A stretch of 64,000 bases of DNA from Thermomicrobiales bacterium (GCA_049841275.1 JASGDN010000036.1:10173-74172); one strand, 5' to 3'. Positions 6,932-51,161 are shown, counted from the stretch's first letter. Notes: generated by a model not told the origin, from the sequence alone. Numbers and translations are program-made.

Positions 6932-8806
6932 ATGCACGAATCCCCAGAACCACCATCAAGCCCCTCCTCGGTGGTGGTCTTGCGCAATCAAAGCGATCGA
7001 CCGCTTCCGTGGCTCACCTGGCCCTATGGCCTCATCTTCCTTGTGGCATTGCTCGGCGTCGCCGCCACGTATGCCTACGACGCCTTCCTGAAATCCGATT
7101 CGCCCCCCCAGGAACTCGTCTTCCGCGTGGTCGATGCCAACGATGCGCCGGTCGCAGGCGCCGTCGTCCGCGTCGGGAATGTCGAGCAGGTGACCGATAA
7201 TGATGGCCTCGCCCGGCTTCCTGGCCGCGAGGGCACGCAGCCGATCACGGTCGAACGGGAGGGGTTCGTCGGCGAGCAGGGCACGATTGACCCCGCCGAC
7301 GGCAACCGCCGCGAAATCACATTGCATGCCGTGTCCCACGCATCAGGCGACGAACAGGCCGCCGTCACACCCGCGCCTGCCCCTCCGGACAACGCTACAA
7401 CCGCCGTCGATACGTCGGCGACGCCATCGCATCTCGACTCGACATCGGTCGCCCCGATCGCCTCCCCCGGAACGACACTCGAAGGTCTGAGCGGTGACGA
7501 GATTGCGGGCAAGGTCCTCGATACCGAGGGCAAGCCGATCCAGGGTGCGCGGGTCGCCTCCGGAGACACCTGGAGCGTGACCGGTGCGGACGGCATCTAC
7601 CATCTCGACCGTGCGAAGGTCGATGCCAGCAAGCCGCTTCGCGCGTTCGCCTCCGGCTACCCGGACACAGACGTGCCCGTGCCCGCCGCCGGAATCGCCC
7701 AGAACGTCACCCTCGATGAATACATGGTGAAGGCGATCTACCTGAATCCGACCATCACCGATACTCCGGAGAAAATCCAGGCGCTGATCGACATCGCCAA
7801 TACGACTGAAATCAATGCGATCGTGATCGACATCAAGGAGGAATGGATCTTCTACGATACTCAGGTCAAACTCTTCCGCGATGCCGGCACCGTCAATCCG
7901 ATCATCGACGTACCCGCCATGCTCAAGCAGATGCAGGACAACGGCATATACACGATCGCCCGGCTCGTGGTCTTCAAGGACAGCCTCGTCGCCGAAAAGC
8001 GCCAGGACCTGGCCGTGAAATCGACCGTCACCGGCGATGCCTGGCGCGACATGAATGACGTCGCCTGGGTGAATCCGGCCAACCACGAGTTGTGGGAGGC
8101 GAACACGCAACTGGCCGTCGAAGCGGCCACCCTTGGATTCGATGAGATCCAGTTCGACTACGTTCGCTTCCCGACCGATGGCGACCTGGAGACGATGGAC
8201 TTCGGTTTCGAGTTCACCCAGGCCGCCCGCGAGCATGCGATCAACGGCTTTGTGGACTACGCCTACCAGCGGCTCATTCCGACCGGCGCAAAGCTCTCCG
8301 CGGATGTCTTCGGCTACACCCTACTCGTCCAGGACGACCTCGGAATCGGCCAGAATCTGAAGACCCTGGAGCCCCATCTCGACTTCCTGAGTCCGATGGT
8401 CTACCCCTCGCACTACGGCGACAACTTCCAGGGCTATGCACCCCCCAACGACTACCCCGGCGAGGTAGTCGGCATCTCGATGCAGAGCGGTGTCGACCTC
8501 CTCGGTCTCACCCCGAAGAAGCTGCGTCCCTGGCTGCAGGACTTCGACTATTTCGGCGATGAGAAGCCATACAACGCGCCGGAAGTGCGCGCCCAGATCG
8601 ACGCGACGGAGGAAGCCGGCGCATCCGGCTGGATGCTCTGGTCGCCAGACAACGCCTACACAGTAGATGCGCTCGAACCCGAGTCTTCGTCGAGGCATCG
8701 TGACGGAACGAGTCTCGCAGCCATCGCGGCGCTTGCGGGAATGGCGGTCGTCCCGGCTCATGCTGCTGGAATGGCGGTCCAACGGGAAGCGCCGATCATC
8801 GCCTGA
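6932..8806 (+). CDS. Membrane-anchored putative glycoside hydrolase (DUF4015/GHL-like TIM-barrel domain) with N-terminal Ig/carboxypeptidase-regulatory-like repeats
   Basis: The central region (INAIVIDIKEE..IYTIARLVVFKD..AWVNP..GFDEIQFDYVRFP) matches my memory of the DUF4015 putative glycosyl hydrolase family. One N-terminal TM helix. The start is uncertain (GTG 6851 or ATG 6932). Confidence 0.7.
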   Translation: MHESPEPPSSPSSVVVLRNQSDRPLPWLTWPYGLIFLVALLGVAATYAYDAFLKSDSPPQELVFRVVDANDAPVAGAVVRVGNVEQVTDNDGLARLPGREGTQPITVEREGFVGEQGTIDPADGNRREITLHAVSHASGDEQAAVTPAPAPPDNATTAVDTSATPSHLDSTSVAPIASPGTTLEGLSGDEIAGKVLDTEGKPIQGARVASGDTWSVTGADGIYHLDRAKVDASKPLRAFASGYPDTDVPVPAAGIAQNVTLDEYMVKAIYLNPTITDTPEKIQALIDIANTTEINAIVIDIKEEWIFYDTQVKLFRDAGTVNPIIDVPAMLKQMQDNGIYTIARLVVFKDSLVAEKRQDLAVKSTVTGDAWRDMNDVAWVNPANHELWEANTQLAVEAATLGFDEIQFDYVRFPTDGDLETMDFGFEFTQAAREHAINGFVDYAYQRLIPTGAKLSADVFGYTLLVQDDLGIGQNLKTLEPHLDFLSPMVYPSHYGDNFQGYAPPNDYPGEVVGISMQSGVDLLGLTPKKLRPWLQDFDYFGDEKPYNAPEVRAQIDATEEAGASGWMLWSPDNAYTVDALEPESSSRHRDGTSLAAIAALAGMAVVPAHAAGMAVQREAPIIA

Positions 8807-40551: not shown

Positions 40552-40665
40552 GGAACGAGACGGGAGGAACGGGAACGAGACGGGCCGACATTCCGTCCCA
40601 TTCAGGGCGTGTGGACCCGCCGAACCCCGCATACTATCAAGCGTACTCGGTCCAGCATACCTTGC

Positions 40666-40726
40666 CATGTCATTCTGAGCGCAGCGAAGAACCCCCGCGC
40701 GAAGCGCTTCCGGCGGAGCCGGAACC
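40666..40726 (+). repeat. Left inverted repeat of the GIY-YIG element
   Basis: catgtcattctgagcgcagcgaagaacccccgcgcgaagcgcttccggcggagccggaacc. Confidence 0.85.
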
Positions 40727-40841
40727 TGATGCCTGCATGCACGATCCCTCGCCCTTCAGCCCGTCCACCGGCAGAGGCGCTCGGCTACGTCCCGTCTTCG
40801 CCATACCAACTCCACGCGAGATCGTTCCACCGAGGATTCTA

Positions 40842-41084
40842 TTACTCAGTCAACGCGATCTTCCGCGCACGTAGCCACCCCTTCAGCTGCTTCTCCCGAG
40901 CGATCGCATCACGGACATCCCCAAACTCTTCGACATGGACCAGGCGGTTTGTTCGATATTGCTTTGAGAACCCCTCGGACTGGCCGGTCTTGTGCTGCCA
41001 AATCCGCCGCTCAAGATTGTTGGTCATACCGATATAGATCGTCCGCGACGGGCTGGCAACGATGTAGACGTAGTAGGCGTTCAT
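40842..41084 (-). CDS. GIY-YIG nuclease family protein (UPF0213-like, 80 aa)
   Basis: MNAYYVYIVASPSRTIYIGMTNNLERRIWQHK..REKQLKGW. The tracked 233-aa ORF is an over-extension through the repeat. Confidence 0.9.
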   Translation of the reverse strand: MNAYYVYIVASPSRTIYIGMTNNLERRIWQHKTGQSEGFSKQYRTNRLVHVEEFGDVRDAIAREKQLKGWLRARKIALTE

Positions 41085-41130
41085 CGTGAGAGCCCTTCGC
41101 ATTGGTGGAGCGTTGTTCATGCCAGCACCG

Positions 41131-41191
41131 GGTTCCGGCTCCGCCGGAGGCGCTTCGCGCGGGGGTCCTTCACTGCGTTCAGAATGACATG
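41131..41191 (-). repeat. Right inverted repeat of the GIY-YIG element
   Basis: The reverse complement reads catgtcattctgaacgcagtgaaggacccccgcgcgaagcgcctccggcggagccggaacc. Confidence 0.85.
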
Positions 41192-41301
41192 GGATGATGC
41201 GTGACGGCTGACCTCCGTATGGCCAGGTCGGGCTGGATCGTGCGTTCCGGGTGACGTACTGGGTTCGGCTGGGCAACGCCTCTGGATGCGACCTGAACGA
41301 T

Positions 41302-41796
41302 TCACGCATCCCACCGGTCGCGGGCCTCCGACGCCTTCCGCCGGAAGTATTCGTCGTCCTCGTCGTCGGACGTGACATCGACCTGAACCGTCCAGTTCGC
41401 GGTCCACCGCCAGGGATTGTCGCCAGACACCTGCGGCCCGCCCCACTCCCCCATCTCACGCTCGTCCTGCTCCGCCCATTCGACCATGCGGTCGAGGAAC
41501 GGCTCCACGGGCGCGTCCGGATCGTGGAAGCGAAACCGGCCAAGCTCGGTCAGGAGGGTCGCGCCGGGGTCGAAGACCTCGCCCCGGAAGGCAGCCTTGC
41601 GCAGGCGTTCCAGCCGGGCATCGTCATCCGGCAATGCGCGCACGAAGGCCGCGAGCGCCTCCAGCCCGTCGGCGGAGCGCCGGCTGCGCGCAGCGGCGTC
41701 CGGTCCGAGGCCCATCATGTCTTGGAACTCCCGTTCGCGCCGCCACGCCGCAATCGCGTCGATCCGCTCCGCAATGGCACTGCACACGTCCGTCAT
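41302..41796 (-). CDS. Hypothetical acidic protein (last gene of the McrB-like operon)
   Basis: 164 aa from ATG 41796, with GGAAGG upstream, 19 nt after the McrB-like stop. C-terminal DVTSDDEDDEY acidic patch. No family recognised. Confidence 0.5.
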   Translation of the reverse strand: MTDVCSAIAERIDAIAAWRREREFQDMMGLGPDAAARSRRSADGLEALAAFVRALPDDDARLERLRKAAFRGEVFDPGATLLTELGRFRFHDPDAPVEPFLDRMVEWAEQDEREMGEWGGPQVSGDNPWRWTANWTVQVDVTSDDEDDEYFRRKASEARDRWDA

Positions 41797-41815
41797 GACT
41801 CTGCTACCTTCCGCC

Positions 41816-44395
41816 TCATCCGAAGGACGCAAATCCGTCCACCGCGAGTGTATCCAGCATCCGCGCTACTCGGCGCGCCATGACCGGGAAGAATGCCCGG
41901 CCAGAACCGAGCAGATCGTGATCCTGGATCGTCCCCTCGCCCACCGCGTCCCAGGCCGTTCGCACGGCCGCATGGGAAGGTTCGTCCGGATTCAGGCACC
42001 ACGCAAGAAACTGCAGCAACGGACGTTCCAGTCGCGACACCGATCCGGAGAACTTCGGCAGCACTTTCATCAGCACCGCAAGATCGAACGTTTCCTCCAA
42101 AGAGGCCTGTGGCACGACGGCCTTATACGCTCCAACGAACGCCGCAATCTCATCGAAGACGCGATAGCCGAACTGCATCTGCGACCGGGCAAGCAGGGTA
42201 TTCAGGGCCTGGAGCCACGTCCGGATTTCCGGGTGCGCATCCACGATTCCGGCAGTCTCGCCCTTGTCGATCCCGACGAACCGGCCACCGCGCGAGAAGG
42301 CATCCAGCAGGGCACGCCGCTCGTCATCGCCGATGACCGCCGGAACATCCCCAGTCCGGGTTGGTGGATAGTCAGTGAAATCCACCTCCGAAAGCTCGAT
42401 GGTGAACGCGCGGTCCAGCACCTTCGGGCTGAACGAGTGCGTCGTCTCGTCCATATTGACGGTACCAACGATGTAGAGATTCGGTGGGAGATGGACGGTG
42501 GCGGGCGGAACGTCGGCATCGTCCTGATCCTCGGCAGGCTCCGGCCGTTCAATCCGGATCGCCTCGCGCGTCCAACCCTCGGCGTCACGCCCGGATTCGA
42601 GCACGCTCAGGAGGTCCGCGAAGTAGTACTCGACGTGGGCGAGGTTCATCTCGTCGAGAATGACGAACCAGGCGACGCGGTCATCGGTCGGTCCTCGGAA
42701 GTTCTCGGCGGCGCGCAGGACGAAGCGCAGGAACTCGGTCCACTCGTACGATCCGAGGAGCGGATTGTGGTATCCGAGCAGCGCCCGGCTGTCCCGCCAG
42801 TCCGGCCGCACGGACAGGAACAGGTTATTGGGAAGGGCCAACTTGGGAGAGGTGGCCGCGATGTCGATTTCTCCGAGGCTCTCGACCAGAACTCTCGAGG
42901 AGTGAACTTTGAAGCCAACGACATCAGCCTCGTCATTCAGCTCAGGTTCAAGGTATAGGGAGCCACCTAGACCCACGTCCTTGAGCTGAGGACCCAGCAC
43001 CTTGGTAAGGCCGAGATTCACCAATGGCGATCCAGGAGACATGTCTTTGATGTGACGGAGTGATCCTACTGCCTGGGTTCCATCGAAGTCGAGCCTGACC
43101 TGCCGCGTTTCTCCGACTTCCGGGATTCCAAAGCGTCCAATCTGCTTCGACGGCAGATAGAGCCGGTTGTGCCTCAAGGTGTAAGGCTTGAGCGTGACGC
43201 GGATCAGACCTTCTCCGTCTATCACCTGCGGCTCATCTGTTTCCAAGTTGGGTAGACAGCGCACGAAGGCTTGAGCCAGCTTGCTCTTCCCAGTGCCACT
43301 GATGCCAGAGAGGATCACGAACCCCTTCGTCTGGAGCGCGGCATAGAAGGTCGCCAGCTGCCGGTCGGTGTACGTCAGCCCCTGACCCCGCACGCTCCGT
43401 CGCATGACATCAAGGGCGTTGGTCGGCGCACCCTCGTTGTGGACAACCTTCTTGCCCACGATCTCCGCGAACTGTGCCTCTGTGAGCTGGAGGATGGTTG
43501 CCTGGCGGCTGAGAAGGGAAGCAGTACTTTCGCTGAGGTGATCGAGTTGTGTGCGATCGACACCGGTCCATTCCACCTGACGGCGGTGTCGATAGGGGAA
43601 GTCGTCGTCGACTAGCTTGTAGTCCCCAACGATAGTCCCAACGCCGTAGAGTTCGCCACGCGCTGTCGAGAGCACTCGATCACCGATTTGCATGCCGTGG
43701 ATGAAATGCCAAAGCGCCAATGCCCCAGCAGGGGACACACCGGTCTCTCGACGAAGACCGGCGATAAACCCTTCTCGATCCGCTGGAAGGTCAGGAACAT
43801 GACCGACTTCCTCCCATCCAATCGCGATGAACGAACCATCACGAAAGGTGGACCAGTCTCGATTGCCTCGCCCCGCCGAAACTTTCCAGTATCGAGTACT
43901 CGATTTCGCAGCGACACTGCCATCGTTCACATATGCCGGGGTTGGAAGCTCCTGACCGGACCGATCCTCAATCTCCTTCAGGGCAGCGGGATCGAACGAT
44001 GCCGAACGACTTGACCGAGTTCGCACCGAGCGAGCCAACACCTCCACAACCTCTCGATGAGACTCCGCTACTTCTTGCCACTCCGTTTCGAACTCAAGAT
44101 GCGGGACACTCACCCGGGCAAGGTCAATCCCGAAGCTATCGGTACGTCGGAAGTCGTCTTTGACAACCTTGATGACGGGAGAACTCGGTGCAGGGGCCTT
44201 CAGCAGGATTTCCAGTCTCCCAGAACCGTCACGTTGATAGAGCCACGTCGTGTACTCACTGACGAACACAATCACGCGACCTTCGTAGAACTGAACCGAC
44301 CACGAGTTCGGATTGATCTCATGGGCAATTCGGATCGACTCGGCCATCTGCCGATAGATTGCCATTCGTGCGTGTTCCAGCTTGGGGTCAATCAT
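41816..44395 (-). CDS. McrB-like AAA+ (AAA_5) GTPase/ATPase with two N-terminal putative reader domains
   Basis: Walker A GISGTGKS, Walker B WFVILDEMNLAH, McrB-type signature GTVNMDETTHSFSPKVLDRAF. A PUA/EVE-like segment (YWKVSAGRGNRDW..IAIGW..GDRVLSTARGELYGVGTIVGDY..RRQVEW). The first ~150 aa are paralogous to the upstream gene. Confidence 0.88.
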   Translation of the reverse strand: MIDPKLEHARMAIYRQMAESIRIAHEINPNSWSVQFYEGRVIVFVSEYTTWLYQRDGSGRLEILLKAPAPSSPVIKVVKDDFRRTDSFGIDLARVSVPHLEFETEWQEVAESHREVVEVLARSVRTRSSRSASFDPAALKEIEDRSGQELPTPAYVNDGSVAAKSSTRYWKVSAGRGNRDWSTFRDGSFIAIGWEEVGHVPDLPADREGFIAGLRRETGVSPAGALALWHFIHGMQIGDRVLSTARGELYGVGTIVGDYKLVDDDFPYRHRRQVEWTGVDRTQLDHLSESTASLLSRQATILQLTEAQFAEIVGKKVVHNEGAPTNALDVMRRSVRGQGLTYTDRQLATFYAALQTKGFVILSGISGTGKSKLAQAFVRCLPNLETDEPQVIDGEGLIRVTLKPYTLRHNRLYLPSKQIGRFGIPEVGETRQVRLDFDGTQAVGSLRHIKDMSPGSPLVNLGLTKVLGPQLKDVGLGGSLYLEPELNDEADVVGFKVHSSRVLVESLGEIDIAATSPKLALPNNLFLSVRPDWRDSRALLGYHNPLLGSYEWTEFLRFVLRAAENFRGPTDDRVAWFVILDEMNLAHVEYYFADLLSVLESGRDAEGWTREAIRIERPEPAEDQDDADVPPATVHLPPNLYIVGTVNMDETTHSFSPKVLDRAFTIELSEVDFTDYPPTRTGDVPAVIGDDERRALLDAFSRGGRFVGIDKGETAGIVDAHPEIRTWLQALNTLLARSQMQFGYRVFDEIAAFVGAYKAVVPQASLEETFDLAVLMKVLPKFSGSVSRLERPLLQFLAWCLNPDEPSHAAVRTAWDAVGEGTIQDHDLLGSGRAFFPVMARRVARMLDTLAVDGFASFG
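44300..44351 (-). repeat. Nucleotide-level direct repeat, copy 1 (inside the McrB-like N-terminus)
   Basis: 45/52 nt identical to 45246-45297, including a 21-nt perfect run cggatcgactcggccatctgc. It encodes ..QMAESIR.AH.INPNSW... Confidence 0.8.
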
Positions 44396-45365
44396 CGTTG
44401 CCTCGTATCACATCTCTCGCATACGCCGGAAGCCCGAGCGGCTCCCGTGCATGGACCGACAGCACGCCAAGCAAATCGGCGTCGAACTTGCGAGCCGTCT
44501 TTACTTGCGTCCGCACACCACTCGCTATGGTTTCCACCAGTAGTTCGTGCGCTTCGGCGAAGTCTTCGAGGAAGTCATAGATATCGTGTCCTCGCGCCCA
44601 GAACCACCCCGCCTGACCGTCAAGGACGGTATCGTCTATCCGTTGCTCGTCCCATCTTCTCGCGACGGGTTCCGGAACGTCGTCCAACCATACACACAAC
44701 TCGATACGCCCGGGACGCTGTTTCCATTTCGCACAGGGAAGATCCGCGATCGTCACCACAACCGATCGCTGGCTCCTGTAGAACGACCATGACCGATCGT
44801 TCGTTCGCTGCGCCAACGCGATGGTCGATGCCAGCCGATCGGCGACGATCCACGGCACACCGTCGAGCACCCCTTCGTCGAACGTCGGATCGTCGAGATA
44901 CTCCGGCCTCGGAAGCGTCGCGCCAGCCAGGGCCTCGACTTCTCTCATGGCACGCTCATCGTACCGTCGCCAGTAGTTCGGTTTGCTTCTGGCAGCCGTC
45001 GAGATCGCACGGTGGTGCGATTCCCGGAGCGCCGGGAACTTCTTCACCATCTCCAATACCGGAATCCGAACCCGGTGAAAGTCGCGATGGATCTTGAAGT
45101 CCGTGTCCTCTACATCGAGATCGTCAATATCCGGAGTTGGGTCCTGAAGAATGAGGTCAACGTTCCCGGTCATGTCCTTGCGGGGCGAGAAGGAATAATA
45201 GGCGCCCACCAGCAGGATGACCTGCTTCTTCCAGTACATCACGAGCCACGAGTTCGGGTTGATGTCGTGCGCCAACCGGATCGACTCGGCCATCTGCTGG
45301 TAGACCGCCGTCCGCGCTCGATTCAGCGCCTCACTCGCCAACGGCACAGCCGCGACGTCGCTCAC
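44388..45365 (-). CDS. Hypothetical protein made of two tandem copies of the ~150-aa domain also found at the McrB-like N-terminus
   Basis: The GTG start at 45365 overlaps the upstream stop (GTGA), with GGGAGGAG upstream. The stop overlaps the McrB-like ATG by 8 nt. ARTAVYQQMAESIRLAHDINPNSWLV.. compares with ARMAIYRQMAESIRIAHEINPNSWSV... Confidence 0.65.
   Translation of the reverse strand: MSDVAAVPLASEALNRARTAVYQQMAESIRLAHDINPNSWLVMYWKKQVILLVGAYYSFSPRKDMTGNVDLILQDPTPDIDDLDVEDTDFKIHRDFHRVRIPVLEMVKKFPALRESHHRAISTAARSKPNYWRRYDERAMREVEALAGATLPRPEYLDDPTFDEGVLDGVPWIVADRLASTIALAQRTNDRSWSFYRSQRSVVVTIADLPCAKWKQRPGRIELCVWLDDVPEPVARRWDEQRIDDTVLDGQAGWFWARGHDIYDFLEDFAEAHELLVETIASGVRTQVKTARKFDADLLGVLSVHAREPLGLPAYARDVIRGNDD
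45246..45297 (-). repeat. Nucleotide-level direct repeat, copy 2
   Basis: See 44300-44351. Confidence 0.8.
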
Positions 45366-46966
45366 AATGCTCCTCCCATCACCAACGGAGACATCCCGAT
45401 CTCGCTCACACCGCTCAACCCCTCGTTCAGGACAACATCCGCGACCGTCGTGGGGGCTATCGTCCCGGCAGCCGGCCGGAACGTCGCACTCGTCCCCGGA
45501 TAGAGCACCACCGCTGCCCGCACCCCGAGCGCATCTCGATACGCGTGCATCTTCACCAGGTCGTCGTCCTTCGGATCGTACGACACCCCAGCCGGAAGTT
45601 CCCCATCCTCCAGGACCGCCGGGGAGGTCGAGGCCACCATCCGGAATTTCGCGTCGAAGGCGACGCGCACGCCCTCCGCCGGTATCCACACGTAGTCTGG
45701 CCGCAATCGCACGCCGGAATACCCTCGCTCCGACCAGTTGTAGACCAGCGTTCCCGCCGTCCCGAACCGGCATGCGAACCGATGCCGCAGGCCATCAACC
45801 CCATCGCCGACCGCGTCCATCGTCCCCGGCAGATCGAGCGCCGCGCCGATCCGGTCCGCCAGTTCGAAGAAGACCCAGTATTCGTAGAGCGTCGCGATAT
45901 CCCGGATGTCGATCGCATGCTCGAGCCGGTCGAACAGCGGTTGCCGCGCCCGCTGGAACGCGAACCAGAGGCGGGTCAGCTCGCGATAACCATCCCGCCG
46001 CTGCAACACCCGAGACTCCGCCGGAATGCGCACCAGCGGTCCGACTTCGGTAAACTGGCGATCCCGCACAAACGCCCGCAACGCGCCACGCAGGGCAGCC
46101 AGACGGATGCGGTCTGCCTCCGGAACCCGCCCGTACCAGGTGGCCTCCGGAATCGAGTCCGCCCAATCCAGCATTCGCCGCGCAACGTCGAGCACGAAGC
46201 GATTCTCCGGCACGTCCAGCGTCTCGATCGGACGCCGCTGGCGCACGCGCTCGGGACGGAGCCGGTGAGCAATCCTCTGCTCGGAAAGGTCATTGTGCGT
46301 CGCACCCCGCAACACGCTCAGCATCGCGTCGAGATCGATGTCGGACGCCTCGACCAGCCGCACATCCTCATACACCTCATGCAGGCGCCGAAGCGGGCGG
46401 TGCGCGATCGCCTGCATGGCGCGCATCAGATCCTGCCCGTAGCGACGAAAGAAGTGATAGGCAAACAGGAGATTCGGCGGACGCCGCGCTTCCCGCACCA
46501 GGCGGCCGGTCGGCGCAGCGACCTGGAACGGCATCGGCATCTGGCGCGCGAAGAGGTCGAGCAGCAGGCCATCGGTGAAGGCCAGCGACTCAAGCGGCGT
46601 TGCAAACTTCTCGGCGATCACCTCGACCGCCATCCCCGGTCCAAGGTGGCGACCAGCCTTCATCGGCTGAATCCGGGCAAACCCAAGCTGGTTCTCAAAT
46701 CGCACTTCGAACACGTCGTGACCGGCGATCAGCGGCCCGATGCGTGTCGAACCGACGACGAGCTCATCCGCACCTGCGACGGTCACACGATAGGTCGCCC
46801 ACTCGTGGAGGAAGCAAGCTGGTCGATGGGGAAGTCCATGATACGCCGCGAGCGCCGCCGCAACGTGCGCTTCGGAGAATGCATTCGCTCGGTCCCAGCG
46901 GACGATCGTTATCGCTCCCGGCAGAGGATGGGCGCCGTCGTCCACGACCGAGAAACCGGCTTCCAT
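45362..46966 (-). CDS. DUF2357-like N-domain fused to a PD-(D/E)xK nuclease (McrC-analogous effector)
   Basis: C-terminal nuclease core YEYWVFFEL..RPDYVWIP..VAFDAKFR..KMHAYRDAL. The long N-terminal region resembles the DUF2357 proteins that partner McrB-like ATPases (from memory). ATG 46966 with GAGGA upstream. Confidence 0.8.
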   Translation of the reverse strand: MEAGFSVVDDGAHPLPGAITIVRWDRANAFSEAHVAAALAAYHGLPHRPACFLHEWATYRVTVAGADELVVGSTRIGPLIAGHDVFEVRFENQLGFARIQPMKAGRHLGPGMAVEVIAEKFATPLESLAFTDGLLLDLFARQMPMPFQVAAPTGRLVREARRPPNLLFAYHFFRRYGQDLMRAMQAIAHRPLRRLHEVYEDVRLVEASDIDLDAMLSVLRGATHNDLSEQRIAHRLRPERVRQRRPIETLDVPENRFVLDVARRMLDWADSIPEATWYGRVPEADRIRLAALRGALRAFVRDRQFTEVGPLVRIPAESRVLQRRDGYRELTRLWFAFQRARQPLFDRLEHAIDIRDIATLYEYWVFFELADRIGAALDLPGTMDAVGDGVDGLRHRFACRFGTAGTLVYNWSERGYSGVRLRPDYVWIPAEGVRVAFDAKFRMVASTSPAVLEDGELPAGVSYDPKDDDLVKMHAYRDALGVRAAVVLYPGTSATFRPAAGTIAPTTVADVVLNEGLSGVSEIGMSPLVMGGAL

Positions 46967-46973
46967 GCGTTCC

Positions 46974-47474
46974 TCAGAAGAGTTGCGCGACAAGCAACGC
47001 GATCAGCCCCAGCACGACGAGGATGCTGACGATCACCTGCCAGCGTCTCCCGATCGGAAAGCCCGCCGACGCAGGGGAAGCCTCCTCGCTCACTGCCGGG
47101 CCGGCGTGCGCGATCGCGGGAAGAGCCACCTGCGCGCGCAACTCCTTCGGAGAGGCCATCCGCTGCTGCTGGTCCCGCTCCAGCTCCACGGCCAGAACGT
47201 AGTCGCTCAGTTGAGCGGGATCTGCCTCCGTCCAGCCCAGGTCGAAGGGCGACCACCGGTTGTCCAGCTTGATGATCGTCTGCAAGGACGCCGACTCATC
47301 CTGCTCCGCCGCCTGCAACGCCAGATCGTACGAACGCTGGTCGCGGCGAAGATCGTCGGCAAGGTCGCGGCGCACGCTCTCCACGTCCCGGCCCTGATAG
47401 ACCGGATGCCAGGCGAAGAACGCACGCGTCCCTCCGGATGGGGTGGCCGAAGGCGATGAAAGGTGATCCGTCAC
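46974..47474 (-). CDS. Tail-anchored membrane protein (first gene of the operon), function unknown
   Basis: 166 aa from GTG 47474 with AGGAG 5 nt upstream. Single C-terminal helix WQVIVSILVVLGLIALLVAQLF. The stop lies 7 nt before the nuclease ATG. Confidence 0.5.
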   Translation of the reverse strand: MTDHLSSPSATPSGGTRAFFAWHPVYQGRDVESVRRDLADDLRRDQRSYDLALQAAEQDESASLQTIIKLDNRWSPFDLGWTEADPAQLSDYVLAVELERDQQQRMASPKELRAQVALPAIAHAGPAVSEEASPASAGFPIGRRWQVIVSILVVLGLIALLVAQLF

Positions 47475-47593: not shown

Positions 47594-47884
47594 CTACACC
47601 CGTTCGATGGACGTACCGCCCATGATCCCCCAGGATGTCGCCCGGACCGTCCGTCCATCGAACTCCTCCGGCGCGCCGTTGTCGCTCCGGCCTCCGATCA
47701 GCCGGATGCCCTCGACCTCGACGCGAACGCCGCGCGGGACCTTCAGGTGCACTCCACCCAGACCGGAGACGAGCTGGATCGAGATCGTTGGACTCGAGAA
47801 CGTCGCCTGCGTGAGATCGAGGTTGATCCCGCCCAGCAGGGAGATACGCGTCTCCGGATTCCCGGCAACAGGACCCGACGCCAT
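47594..47884 (-). CDS. LiaF/DUF2154-like C-terminal domain protein (possibly the 3' half of a frameshifted DUF1707 gene)
   Basis: ..ISLLGGINLDLTQATF..GGVHLKVPRGVRVEVEGIRLIGG.. is typical of the C-domain of DUF1707/LiaF-like proteins. Confidence 0.5.
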   Translation of the reverse strand: MASGPVAGNPETRISLLGGINLDLTQATFSSPTISIQLVSGLGGVHLKVPRGVRVEVEGIRLIGGRSDNGAPEEFDGRTVRATSWGIMGGTSIERV

Positions 47885-47907
47885 CGTGCCCGTTGGCTGT
47901 GGCGATG

Positions 47908-48108
47908 TCACCCCATCATCCGGGAGAGATCGGCAGCCAACGCCGCAAGCTGGCCGCGCGTGGAATCGTCCGTGATCGTATGGAGCCGCTCGAAGAGCTC
48001 GTCCGACGAGATTCGTCCTTCCGCCTGGGCGCGCGTCAGCCGGTCCGCCGTCGCCTCCCGTTCCGCGAGTGACGATCGAATGGCAGCCCCACCTTGTTGG
48101 TCGTTCAT
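47908..48108 (-). CDS. DUF1707 (SHOCT-like) domain protein, 66 aa (possibly the 5' half of a split gene)
   Basis: ..SLAEREATADRLTRAQAEGRISSDELFERLHTITDDSTRGQLAALAADL... ATG 48108 with AGGAAGGGG upstream. Confidence 0.55.
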   Translation of the reverse strand: MNDQQGGAAIRSSLAEREATADRLTRAQAEGRISSDELFERLHTITDDSTRGQLAALAADLSRMMG

Positions 48109-48446
48109 GCTGTGCCCCTTCCTGCGATTCCCGGTGTATCCGCACCACCACGCGAGACCACCATAGCGGCAGCGCAACATGACCCGAAGTGACGGCGATG
48201 CCTGTTCAGTCATGACGAATGTCACGGTTGCGCGGGCTCAGAACCGGTCCGCCGGACGATATACGGCTGGCATTCGGGAACAGCACGGCGAGCACCTCCG
48301 CCGCACCAGACCGCCATATGTAGGGCCGACACGAGGTCGGCCCGGTCTCGACGTTACGCAAGTCAGGCCAGGAGATGCACTGATGCCGGGTCCGCCGCGA
48401 CAATTCGCGGCAGACCCGGCACATCCTGCACCCTCTTCGTTCCTCG

Positions 48447-51161
48447 CTACAACGCGACGGTCCCCTCGTAGACGAGGTCCCGGCACCGCGCCTCGACTTC
48501 CGCCGGGTCGATGGCAAGCCGCGCCATGCCCGTCTCCTGCGCCGACTGCGCGACCGCCGCCGCGACCCGCGGCGAGACGCGCAGATCGAGGCTGTCCGGG
48601 ATCAGGAACTCCGGGCTCAGCTTCTCCGCCGACACGAGGTCGGCGATGGCGTAGGCTGCCGCAATCTTCATGTCGTCGCTGATCTGCCGCGCCTTCACAT
48701 CAAGCGCCCCCCGGAAGACGCCGGGGAAGGCCAGCGAGTTGTTGACCTGGTTCGGGAAATCGCTGCGCCCGGTCGCGACGGCAAACGCGCCCGCCTCCTT
48801 CGCCAGGTCGGGCATGATCTCCGGCGTCGGGTTCGCCAGCGCGAAGATCAGCGGATCGGGCGCCATCGAACGCACCATCTCCTGCGTCAGTGTGCCCGGT
48901 GCCGAGAGGCCGATGAAGACGTCCATGCCCGGCAGCACGTCCGCAAGCTTGCCCGTCTTGCCCTCGTGATTCGTCACCTCGGCGATGGCCCGCTTGGACG
49001 CGTCCATGTGACCCGGCCGGTTCGCGTAAATCGCGCCGGAACGGTCGCAGAGGATGATATCCGCCGCGCCGAGGACATTGAGCAGCTTGGCCACCGCGAT
49101 CCCCGCCGCGCCCGCGCCATTGATGACGATCTTGAGGTCCTTGATCTCGCAGTTCCGCAGCCGTGCCGCATTGATCAGCCCGGCAGCGACCACGATGGCG
49201 GTCCCGTGCTGGTCGTCGTGGAAGACCGGCATATCGAGCCGCGCCCGCAGCTTCTCCTCGATCTCGAAGCAGCGCGGCGCGGCGATGTCCTCCAGGTTGA
49301 TGCCGCCGAGCGACGGCGCGATGGCCGCCACCGTCTCCACGATATCGTCCGGATCGCGCTCGGCCAGGCAGATCGGAAACGCTTCCACCCCGGCAAGGGT
49401 CTGGAAGAGCACCGCCTTGCCCTCCATCACCGGCAGGCCGGCGGTCGGCCCGATATCGCCGAGACCGAGCACCGCCGAACCGTCCGTCACGATGCCCACG
49501 AGGTTCCCCTTCGCCGTGAACTCCGTCACGCGGGAGACATCATCGCGGATGACGTGCGCAGGCACGAGGGCGCGCGGCGGCACGTAGAGCAGGTTCAGGA
49601 TGTGGTGGTCCTTGATGGGGATCTTGCTCCGGATCTCGAGCACGCCGTGATTGCGCTCGCGGAGGTCGATCGCCTCCTCGCGGAAGGTACGCCCCTCCTG
49701 CCGCGTGCTCGGGCGCGCCGGATCGAGCCGCCCCTCGTACACGAACCGCCGCGTCTTTTCGGCGACCTCCTCCGGCGTCACGTCGCGCGTGGCCTCGCCG
49801 GCTTCGATCGCACCGCGCACCACCGCCGCCGCGATGGCTGGCGCCACCCGGAAGTCGAAGAGCGCCGGCACGATGTACTCCTCGTGCAACTGCTCGCCCG
49901 GCACCATATCGGCCAGCGCCCGCGCGGCATGGAGCATCATCCGCAGGCGGATGTTGCGGGAACCGCTGTCGAGCAGCCCCCGGAAGAAACCGGGGAAGAC
50001 CAGCGAGACATCCATCATGTTCGCGTAGTCGGAACGCCCGGTCGCAATCACCCGGGCACCACCGGCCCGCGCCACGGACGGCAGGATTTCCGGGATCGGC
50101 ACCGCCAATGCGAAGACGATCGGATCGGGCGCCATCGACCGGATCATCGCCTCGGTCACGATGTCGCCCGTGGAGAGCCCCACGAAGACATCCGCGCCCA
50201 CCAGCATGTCGCTCAGCGACCCCTGCTGCTGCGACCCGTTCGTCTCCTTGGCGACGTAAGACTTCGCCCAGTTCATGCGCTCGCCACGGCTGCGGTAGAT
50301 CGCCCCGGCACGGTCGCAGACGACAAGGTTCTTCACGCCGGCCCGCACGAGCAGGCGGGCGACACCGATCCCGGCGATACCCGCGCCACTGAGCACGACC
50401 TTGACCTTGTCGAGGTCCTTTCCCACCACCTTCAACGCGTTGTAGAGCGCGCCAAGCACGAGGATGGCCGTGCCGTGGTGCTGGTTGGAGAAGACCGGGA
50501 TATCCGCGCCCTTGTCGAGGTTGTCGGCGATGGTGAAGGCGCGCGGCGAGGAAATGTCGTCGAGGCAGATCGCCCCGAAGGTCGGCGCAATGGCGATACC
50601 GGTCTCCACGATCTCCCCGGCATCCGTGGTGTTGACGCAAATCGGCACCGCATCGACCCCGGCGAACGTCTTGAAGATGACGCTCTTGCCCTCGGCCACC
50701 GGCAGCTCGGCCTCCGGCGGCCCTCCTTCGCGGCCGAAGAGGTCGGAGCCATCGGAGAGGATGGCAACCGTGTTGCCACGGCAGGTGAGGTCGTAGGAAC
50801 GCCCGAGGTCATGATGGATGGCCATGCAGGCTTCCGCCACACCCGGCGTGTAGACGAGCGAGAGCATCGCCCGGTCGCGCACCGGCACCTTGGACGCGAC
50901 GCCGATCAGGCCGCGATAGCGGCGGCGATAGTCGAGCCCTTCGTCGTTCTCGTCGTAGACGAAGGTCCCTTCCGGCATCGACGCAGGTGTGCCATTCCGG
51001 CGCAGGACGAAGGAGATGGGAGCATCGCTGCGGTCGGTGAAGGCGTCATCCGCCAGTTCGGCGGTCTCGTCGATGCCCATCGGGGGAGCATCCTCGCCTG
51101 ACACGACGGAATCATCCGTCACGAGCACCGATGTCTCCTGCTCCGGTGTTGAGCGAGTCAT
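48447..51161 (-). CDS. Tandem double malic-enzyme-like protein (two complete malic enzyme units fused, 904 aa)
   Basis: Unit 1: VYTPGVAEAC, AEGKSVIF, LDDIS, VFSNQHHGTA, SGAGIAGIG. Unit 2: LYVPPRALV, TDGSAVLGLGDIG, MEGKAVLF, NLEDI, VFHDDQHGTA, NGAGAAGIA. Confidence 0.85.
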   Translation of the reverse strand: MTRSTPEQETSVLVTDDSVVSGEDAPPMGIDETAELADDAFTDRSDAPISFVLRRNGTPASMPEGTFVYDENDEGLDYRRRYRGLIGVASKVPVRDRAMLSLVYTPGVAEACMAIHHDLGRSYDLTCRGNTVAILSDGSDLFGREGGPPEAELPVAEGKSVIFKTFAGVDAVPICVNTTDAGEIVETGIAIAPTFGAICLDDISSPRAFTIADNLDKGADIPVFSNQHHGTAILVLGALYNALKVVGKDLDKVKVVLSGAGIAGIGVARLLVRAGVKNLVVCDRAGAIYRSRGERMNWAKSYVAKETNGSQQQGSLSDMLVGADVFVGLSTGDIVTEAMIRSMAPDPIVFALAVPIPEILPSVARAGGARVIATGRSDYANMMDVSLVFPGFFRGLLDSGSRNIRLRMMLHAARALADMVPGEQLHEEYIVPALFDFRVAPAIAAAVVRGAIEAGEATRDVTPEEVAEKTRRFVYEGRLDPARPSTRQEGRTFREEAIDLRERNHGVLEIRSKIPIKDHHILNLLYVPPRALVPAHVIRDDVSRVTEFTAKGNLVGIVTDGSAVLGLGDIGPTAGLPVMEGKAVLFQTLAGVEAFPICLAERDPDDIVETVAAIAPSLGGINLEDIAAPRCFEIEEKLRARLDMPVFHDDQHGTAIVVAAGLINAARLRNCEIKDLKIVINGAGAAGIAVAKLLNVLGAADIILCDRSGAIYANRPGHMDASKRAIAEVTNHEGKTGKLADVLPGMDVFIGLSAPGTLTQEMVRSMAPDPLIFALANPTPEIMPDLAKEAGAFAVATGRSDFPNQVNNSLAFPGVFRGALDVKARQISDDMKIAAAYAIADLVSAEKLSPEFLIPDSLDLRVSPRVAAAVAQSAQETGMARLAIDPAEVEARCRDLVYEGTVAL

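Follow-up and report, generated by a model that had tools for sequence, protein, structure and literature searches.

Five open reading frames (ORFs), here lettered A to E, lie at positions 41302-47474 of a 64,000-nucleotide (nt) stretch of a Thermomicrobiales metagenome-assembled genome (MAG), the whole of which is called the window below. We consider it probable that B and D form an McrBC-type modification-dependent (Type IV) restriction module, that C is a lineage-specific accessory to it, and that A and E are unrelated genes of the chromosomal backbone. The core of the locus is a new member of a known branch of McrBC systems, the NxD branch. What is new is the free-standing gene inserted into this core, C, which encodes two copies of a domain of about 150 amino acids (aa) (termed X here, with one further copy at the N-terminus of D), together with X itself as a large unnamed family. 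A preliminary description of the same DNA had taken all five genes as one candidate GTPase-dependent defence system with non-canonical parts. Its McrBC-like core and free-standing double-X protein hold up, but the membrane protein A and the acidic protein E do not belong to the system.

A probable McrBC pair of the NxD branch

B is predicted to be the nuclease subunit. It matches the Pfam families DUF2357 (PF09823, 1.5e-21) and PDDEXK_7 (PF04411, 5e-10), as the preliminary description had read from its sequence, and the PD, D-A-K and KMHxYRD columns are kept among 32 homologues, with D424, D438 and K440 present in 31–32 of the 32. McrC is defined by this very combination of DUF2357 and a PD-(D/E)xK nuclease (Bell et al. 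2024, the McrBC census, PMC11090510), hence B is, by its predicted domains, a canonical McrC and not the unusual component that it had been taken for. A sequence search of the PDB gave no meaningful match for B.

The McrB-like motifs noted earlier in D are all present, and an alignment of 36 homologues shows little or no variation in Walker A (GISGTGKS), Walker B (ILDEMN) and the signature GTVNMDETT. D has 193 homologues. The form GTVN[MV]DETT is conserved, and all 64 motif instances found among the homologues read N-[MVL]-D-[ED]. In the NxD signature the McrB motif is shortened to N-x-D, usually followed by E or D (PMC11090510), and it is by this motif that D is assigned to the NxD branch of McrB GTPases. 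Furthermore, phmmer aligned the sensor region of D with Thermococcus McrB (6ut3), weakly (E = 0.0056) but specifically, and the PADLOC model PDC-M26A matches D at 2.6e-40.

Between X and the GTPase domain, D carries a second putative reader. In a model of residues 1–345 (predicted local distance difference test, pLDDT, 84.6), residues 166–335 are predicted to adopt a PUA-like fold of the EVE/YTH superfamily, which bears out the PUA/EVE-like module first proposed for this part of the protein. In a Foldseek search VcaM4I (6yex, E = 1e-4), an EVE-HNH enzyme, and many YTH domains match this region with probability 1.0; in all, there are 35 PDB matches at E ≤ 1e-3, with a target-normalised TM-score of about 0.45–0.58. 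PADLOC PDC-S02 models cover residues 168–313 (3.6e-15), and the homologues that match the EVE-like region of D are those with a precomputed PF28530 annotation, with one exception (P0010). A further domain of about 160 aa, inserted between Walker A and Walker B, is shared by each of the 120 homologues of D that were scanned, and the census describes insertions of this kind in the GTPase domain of McrB as common (PMC11090510). By eye only, this inserted domain (residues 385–545) resembles a B3/AbrB-like DNA-binding barrel. In the public annotation of the MAG, D is only 640 aa long (P0001, QM589_05100) and lacks the X domain and part of the EVE-like domain. The 859-aa reading is supported because P0003, P0009 and P0010 align over 100% of its length.

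Relatives of D were sought in one genome per species, and at least 596 stretches encode one, with representatives in Chloroflexota, Armatimonadota, Myxococcota, Bacillota, Gemmatimonadota and Archaea. Neighbouring genes were counted by tblastn on the best 80 of these at least 596 loci; a B-like gene adjoins the D-like gene in 65 of the 80, which span Chloroflexota, Myxococcota, Bacillota, Armatimonadota and Archaea, and most of the others are cut by contig ends. Taken together, the domains and conserved catalytic residues of B, the motifs of D and this recurrent adjacency identify B and D as a predicted McrBC pair.

The pair has much in common with non-CoCoNuT members of the NxD branch (PMC11090510), including a two-gene core of an McrB-like AAA+ GTPase and McrC, the N-x-D-E signature, a variable N-terminal specificity domain (here including an EVE-superfamily fold) and an insertion inside the GTPase domain. 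It differs from them in that the McrC gene comes first and the McrB gene second, with a gene for a free-standing, putative two-domain reader between them, and in that X stands on the GTPase; no methyltransferase, two-component genes or coiled coils were seen beside B and D. The PADLOC check suggested with the preliminary description was informative for one protein only, D being matched by PDC-M26A and PDC-S02 (the latter through its EVE-like region), while B and C had no match. A, B, C and E match no PDC-M26 model at E ≤ 0.1, and because B matches no PADLOC model at all the pair is not callable as PDC-M26, of which a literature search found no published description.

A variable slot between two conserved genes

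A to E are all co-directional, on the minus strand and in the order A, B, C, D, E (ORF positions read from the window). The junctions given in the preliminary description were reproduced from the sequence: a 7-nt gap between A and B (TGA-ggaacgc-ATG), a GTGA overlap between B and C, an 8-nt overlap between C and D (ATGATTGA) and a 19-nt gap between D and E. Every start has a Shine-Dalgarno-like purine run ahead of it. Translational coupling had been claimed throughout, but across the 7-nt and 19-nt gaps there is proximity only.

This tight, co-directional spacing is what speaks for A–E as one new five-component GTPase-dependent defence system with A and E as functional subunits, as does the recurrence of the A–B and D–E adjacencies in related loci (L005, L009, L091, L095). 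The wider synteny, however, argues otherwise. Related Thermomicrobiales contigs share a double malic enzyme gene, usually an acetyltransferase, sometimes a DUF1707 gene, then A...E, followed by PHP and by NDH-2 or ABC transporter genes, and the gene content between A and E differs among lineages. The order is A-B-C-D(-E) in the window and L009, and A-B-D-E in L005, L006, L091 and L095. It is A-B-D-EamA-E, with EamA on the opposite strand, in L001–L003, and A-(two opposite-strand genes)-B-D-EamA-E in L004, hence A or E is split from B and D by opposite-strand genes in all four. C alone remains in L007, L008 and L010 (A-C-E). In L093 the order is A-EamA-E, with B, C and D all absent, and A and E are likewise present without B, C or D in L092.

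Co-occurrence in other genomes had been set beforehand as the yardstick for membership of a five-gene system, and tblastn found an A-like or E-like gene in none of the 80 distant loci with D-like genes. E is also more conserved across the syntenic loci (73–83% identity) than B (53–81%) or D (47–78%). It has 180 homologues and travels with the PHP gene, and no B-, C- or D-like sequence was detected in two more distant E loci that were inspected. Because they are present without B, C and D, are split off by opposite-strand genes and are absent from the 80 distant loci, A and E are conserved backbone genes bordering a variable slot and not components of the system. The five-component reading is thus largely refuted by synteny, and we regard it as extremely unlikely.

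The individual properties described for A and E were confirmed: A has one C-terminal hydrophobic segment (residues 147–165, Kyte-Doolittle 2.96) and E is acidic (isoelectric point, pI, 4.5). A, C and E had no family match in Pfam, NCBIfam or PADLOC, apart from one of A to Cas5b at chance level, and in a PDB sequence search A had only a compositional match to ATP synthase subunit b (E = 0.02) and E no meaningful match.

Base composition separates C and D from their surroundings, in agreement with the dip in guanine plus cytosine (GC) content noted at first. C and D have 59.8% and 59.6% GC (about 59.7%) against 66–70% in the flanks, and a GC content at third codon positions (GC3) of 0.72 and 0.69 against 0.85–0.89, making both compositionally atypical. 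Within D, the X and EVE-like regions have a GC3 of just 0.60–0.61. The values of A (0.81) and E (0.85) are close to those of the neighbouring genes, and for E this flank-like codon usage is a further point against its membership of a five-component system.

Other unannotated genes are also found in this region in other lineages. The same A...E or E...PHP slot, at 8680–12071 of L092 and 5810–6360 of L004, holds genes for proteins of 483 aa and 581 aa without a Pfam match and a DUF2171 gene. The slot may be a general variable region.

The X domain and the free-standing gene C

The preliminary description had recognised two copies of an unassigned domain in C and a third on D, and sequence comparison agrees. 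The first X of C (C-N) matches that of D (D-N) at E = 8e-31 with 34% identity, the second (C-C) matches D-N at 2e-5, and C-N matches C-C at 2e-3. X is marked by a conserved first helix that ends in ...AHxINPxSW and by a conserved LPxPxY at the C-terminus. X matches no Pfam, NCBIfam or PADLOC model, and precomputed Pfam annotation is empty for all C homologues. In an iterative jackhmmer search, 74 of about 127 proteins in the set carried X in one to three tandem N-terminal copies, often joined with EVE (PF01878), DUF8426 or MrcB_N. When the X profile was run against 1.84 billion representative proteins, 1,564 clusters (counted at 50% identity) were matched at E ≤ 1e-3 and 947 at E ≤ 1e-10.

Among 135 new top matches, 35 carried X with a D-type GTPase. 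The other 100 included proteins with the Pfam domains AAA_5 (19), HNH (9), HNH_2 (4), NOV_C (7), GmrSD_N (3), EVE (4), MrcB_N (1) and HSDR_N (1), and X-HNH, X-X-X-HNH and X-NOV_C were found as explicit architectures. EVE, SRA and other established sensor domains of Type IV enzymes show the same spectrum of fusions (PMC7897488, PMC7641849), and we infer that X is a target-recognition module of Type IV restriction, previously unannotated. X-HNH, X-NOV_C and X-GmrSD proteins resemble the EVE-HNH enzyme VcaM4I (PDB 6yex, PMC7897488) and SRA-HNH enzymes in joining an N-terminal reader to a nuclease, and the DUF8426 domain of D superposes on the EVE domain of VcaM4I. Whereas VcaM4I and the SRA-HNH enzymes are single chains, the effector encoded here is predicted to be a two-subunit machine driven by nucleoside triphosphates.

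The AlphaFold2 model of C (pLDDT 87.9) consists of two alpha-beta-alpha domains, each X comprising a sheet of five or six strands that is preceded and followed by a long helix. Foldseek of this model detected no similarity to EVE, SRA or YTH, and the X profile had no match among PDB sequences. Monomeric LAGLIDADG enzymes and the MotA DNA-binding domain recurred as weak top matches (E ≥ 7e-3, probability ≤ 0.47, query-normalised TM-score about 0.15); this resemblance was not adopted.

The fusions of X also bear on the nature of the target. Part of the NxD branch, to which D belongs, is predicted to act on RNA (PMC11090510), and the closest folds to residues 166–335 of D include YTH domains, readers of N6-methyladenosine (m6A) in RNA, so the module of B and D, with or without C, could target modified RNA and not DNA, as predicted for the CoCoNuT clade of this branch. 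CoCoNuT systems, however, have a long coiled coil on the GTPase, tandem extra nucleases (HEPN and others) and RNA-binding domains. Here the N-terminus of D is X plus an EVE-like domain and not a coiled coil, Pfam and PADLOC scans of A–E found no HEPN, CSD or SmpB-like family, and Pfam, PADLOC and NCBIfam scans gave no sign of RNA-linked domains, whether coiled-coil, HEPN, CSD or others. B keeps an intact DNA-type PD-(D/E)xK site, the top structural match of the D reader is a DNA enzyme, VcaM4I, and X is fused to the DNA nucleases HNH, NOV_C and GmrSD. An RNA target is therefore, in our judgement, very unlikely.

C itself has a narrow distribution. Its homologues fall into only five clusters (66–90% identity), all at the same syntenic slot where the context is known. 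Its expected co-occurrence with B and D was thus found, but only within this narrow clade, and C also occurs without them. No protein identical to C is present in the protein collection, and in public annotation C may be mis-called or uncalled.

Different lineages have different X variants at this slot. The closest relative of the second X of C is the N-terminal X of the GTPase P0011 (2.6e-19), encoded in L095 at the same syntenic position; the X of the L095 GTPase is thus C-C-like. L091 has a GTPase body with 75% identity to D, but its C-N-like X is only 34–40% identical. In other relatives (P0012, P0014 and P0015) a two-X array is fused with the GTPase in one chain. The X variants of L091 and L095, the low GC3 of the X and EVE-like parts of D and an 82-nt direct repeat, which encodes the conserved first helix of X in both D and C, indicate a far quicker turnover of the N-terminal modules than of the motor. 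Recombination at the repeat might delete or exchange modules. Most likely, C arose when the N-terminal module array of a GTPase was split or was replaced by another X-EVE module. Two other derivations were rejected: C is not a recent tandem duplicate of the D N-terminus (identity is 34%, and the D next to it is no closer than orthologous Ds), and the short GTPase of L091 is not a simple C-D deletion fusion, its X being only 40% identical to C-N.

A gene of such origin could be a functionless by-product, an N-terminal array orphaned when the GTPase received by recombination a new X-EVE module with a start codon of its own, and kept as a recombination cassette or too young to have decayed. The fused two-X arrays, the single X domains like C-N or C-C that L091 and L095 have joined straight to the GTPase of this locus, and the direct repeat linking C and D would all suit this explanation, as would the absence of C from L001–L006 although B and D look intact there. 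The pattern of selection on C points the other way. Its ratio of non-synonymous to synonymous substitution rates (dN/dS) is 0.16–0.22 in six pairwise comparisons with dS up to about 1.5, similar to that of A, B and D, and is 0.18 between L007 and L010, both without B and D. The C ORF is intact at each of the loci examined that have it (window, L007, L008, L009 and L010), and the 8-nt C/D overlap of the window is shared with L009. Furthermore, remnants of the last ~25 codons of D directly follow C in L007, L008 and L010, and in L007 about 40 nt of the 3' end of B, including the ribosome-binding site, directly precede it. B and D were therefore deleted around an intact C, with the ribosome-binding region upstream of C spared in L007. 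C is thus under purifying selection and appears to be functional, and its persistence without B and D is suggestive of an independent role; that it should be a mere by-product we consider unlikely.

C could also be a negative regulator or self-protection factor, which would occupy target sites or bind the readers of D and so limit cleavage of host DNA. It has reader-type domains without a catalytic or ATPase part, and it is translationally linked between the nuclease and motor genes. In Escherichia coli, McrB-S lacks the DNA-binding domain and titrates McrC, and a regulatory C would be its mirror image. A pure inhibitor, however, should decay after the loss of B and D, and C is intact in L007, L008 and L010; most B-D systems, those of close relatives included, work without C. 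A purely regulatory C is accordingly a distinctly improbable explanation.

In the explanation that we favour, C is an accessory to the restriction module of B and D. By analogy with the McrBC paradigm, D would assemble as a nucleotide-dependent ring, and target DNA with a modified base would be recognised by its N-terminal X and EVE/YTH-like domains. B would enter the ring through its DUF2357 region and stimulate GTP hydrolysis, and the DNA would then be cut by the PD-(D/E)xK site of B. The most likely role of C is that of a trans-acting protein on target DNA of this class, where it would either lend the B-D complex additional specificity or tune the access of that complex, and C would keep some value without B and D. 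What the sequences show directly are the layout of the genes, the identities of their domains, the patterns of co-occurrence and purifying selection; GTP dependence, a modified-DNA target, DNA binding by X and the trans action of C are inferred. There is precedent for stand-alone reader proteins beside restriction systems (PMC7641849): EVE and ASCH readers are encoded next to Type I restriction-modification and SWI2/SNF2-nuclease systems (Bell et al. 2020), and like C they form a separate small gene. C differs from them in having two copies of an unnamed domain, in lying inside the McrBC pair and in having paralogues fused to the motor of the same operon.

Several observations weigh against this explanation. 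B had no PADLOC or NCBIfam match in the family scans, and D scores 21.5 bits against Pfam AAA_5, just under the 22-bit cut-off. The NxD signature marks a large McrB branch without a characterised member as of the census (PMC11090510), and our search for literature on characterised NxD McrB enzymes returned that paper only. Many of the short X-only hits in the cluster counts may be fragments from short contigs, and the X domains are mildly acidic (pI 5.4–6.2). Foldseek of the C model gave nothing significant in the PDB or among viral models (best PDB E = 7e-3, probability 0.2; best BFVD E = 0.017), and because X has no significant structural neighbour its binding to DNA is argued from domain architectures only. 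Finally, most differences between the D remnant of L007 and the window fall at third codon positions (5/4/19 by codon position), hence the deletion of B and D in this locus may be recent, which weakens the case for a C maintained without them and adds to that for a by-product too young to decay.

A bolder proposal can be put forward only tentatively, as something we doubt more than we expect: that X is a widespread new family of nucleic-acid or modified-base readers of Type IV restriction enzymes and C the first trans-acting, detachable specificity or regulatory subunit of an McrBC system, still working after the loss of motor and nuclease.

Neighbouring features and implications

Features of the locus and its neighbourhood (positions are those of the window)
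Feature	Position	Strand	Description
A	46974-47474	-	166 aa; small protein, C-terminal hydrophobic segment
B	45362-46966	-	534 aa; predicted McrC-type subunit, DUF2357 + PD-(D/E)xK; D424, D438-A-K440
C	44388-45365	-	325 aa; free-standing X-X protein
C, first X domain	44877-45338	-	residues 10-163; jackhmmer boundaries; 34% identical to D-N
C, second X domain	44406-44849	-	residues 173-320; jackhmmer boundaries; E = 2e-5 against D-N
D	41816-44395	-	859 aa; McrB-like AAA+ GTPase, NxD branch by motif; X - EVE/YTH-like (DUF8426) - GTPase with inserted domain
D, X domain	43901-44395	-	residues 1-165; pLDDT mostly above 85
D, predicted EVE/YTH-fold reader domain	43391-43900	-	residues 166-335; Pfam DUF8426 (PF28530), PADLOC PDC-S02 region
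D, inserted domain	42761-43243	-	about 160 aa, residues 385-545; between Walker A and Walker B
E	41302-41796	-	164 aa; acidic protein
Direct repeat	44300-44381 with 45246-45327		78% over 82 nt; first helix of X in D and C
GIY-YIG ORF	40842-41270	-	Pfam 6.3e-16; abuts the operon
Inverted repeats	40665-40742 and 41115-41192		78 nt, 88% complementary; flank the GIY-YIG gene
Malic enzyme	48447-51161	-	904 aa; two full malic + Malic_M domain sets in tandem
ORF upstream of A	47594-48151	-	185 aa; directly upstream of A

The GIY-YIG gene that had been noted beside the operon is real by its Pfam match, and is flanked by inverted repeats. In the syntenic loci L091, L007 and L010 the interval from E to PHP lacks such a gene; here it appears to be a mobile insertion specific to the lineage and not related to the McrBC pair. 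On the other side of the locus, the tandem malic enzyme keeps its length of about 900 aa in most related Thermomicrobiales loci examined. The ORF directly upstream of A appears, by position and sequence, to be of DUF1707 type, and annotated DUF1707 genes stand at the matching position in L004 and L010. The acetyltransferase found in relatives between the malic enzyme and A is absent from the window. In a promoter and terminator scan of 40.5–48.5 kb no site resembled a promoter and one resembled a terminator, fewer than shuffled sequence gave; at this high GC content the scan is uninformative.

The current understanding of Type IV restriction is not overturned by this locus. It illustrates that backbone genes can pass for members of a defence operon on close spacing and shared direction alone, and that an McrBC pair can be missed by the family libraries scanned, B having no PADLOC or NCBIfam match and D falling below the Pfam AAA_5 threshold. 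The useful product of the analysis is the X domain, a common and unnamed module whose fusions follow the pattern typical of modification sensors; from sensors of this class, enzymes have been made that map DNA modifications. Furthermore, one syntenic slot offers a natural series, from a GTPase with X and EVE-like domains, through GTPases with one X or another X, to a detached X-X protein, X-X alone and an empty site. This series could show how the specificity modules of McrBC systems are exchanged, and whether a reader works in trans.

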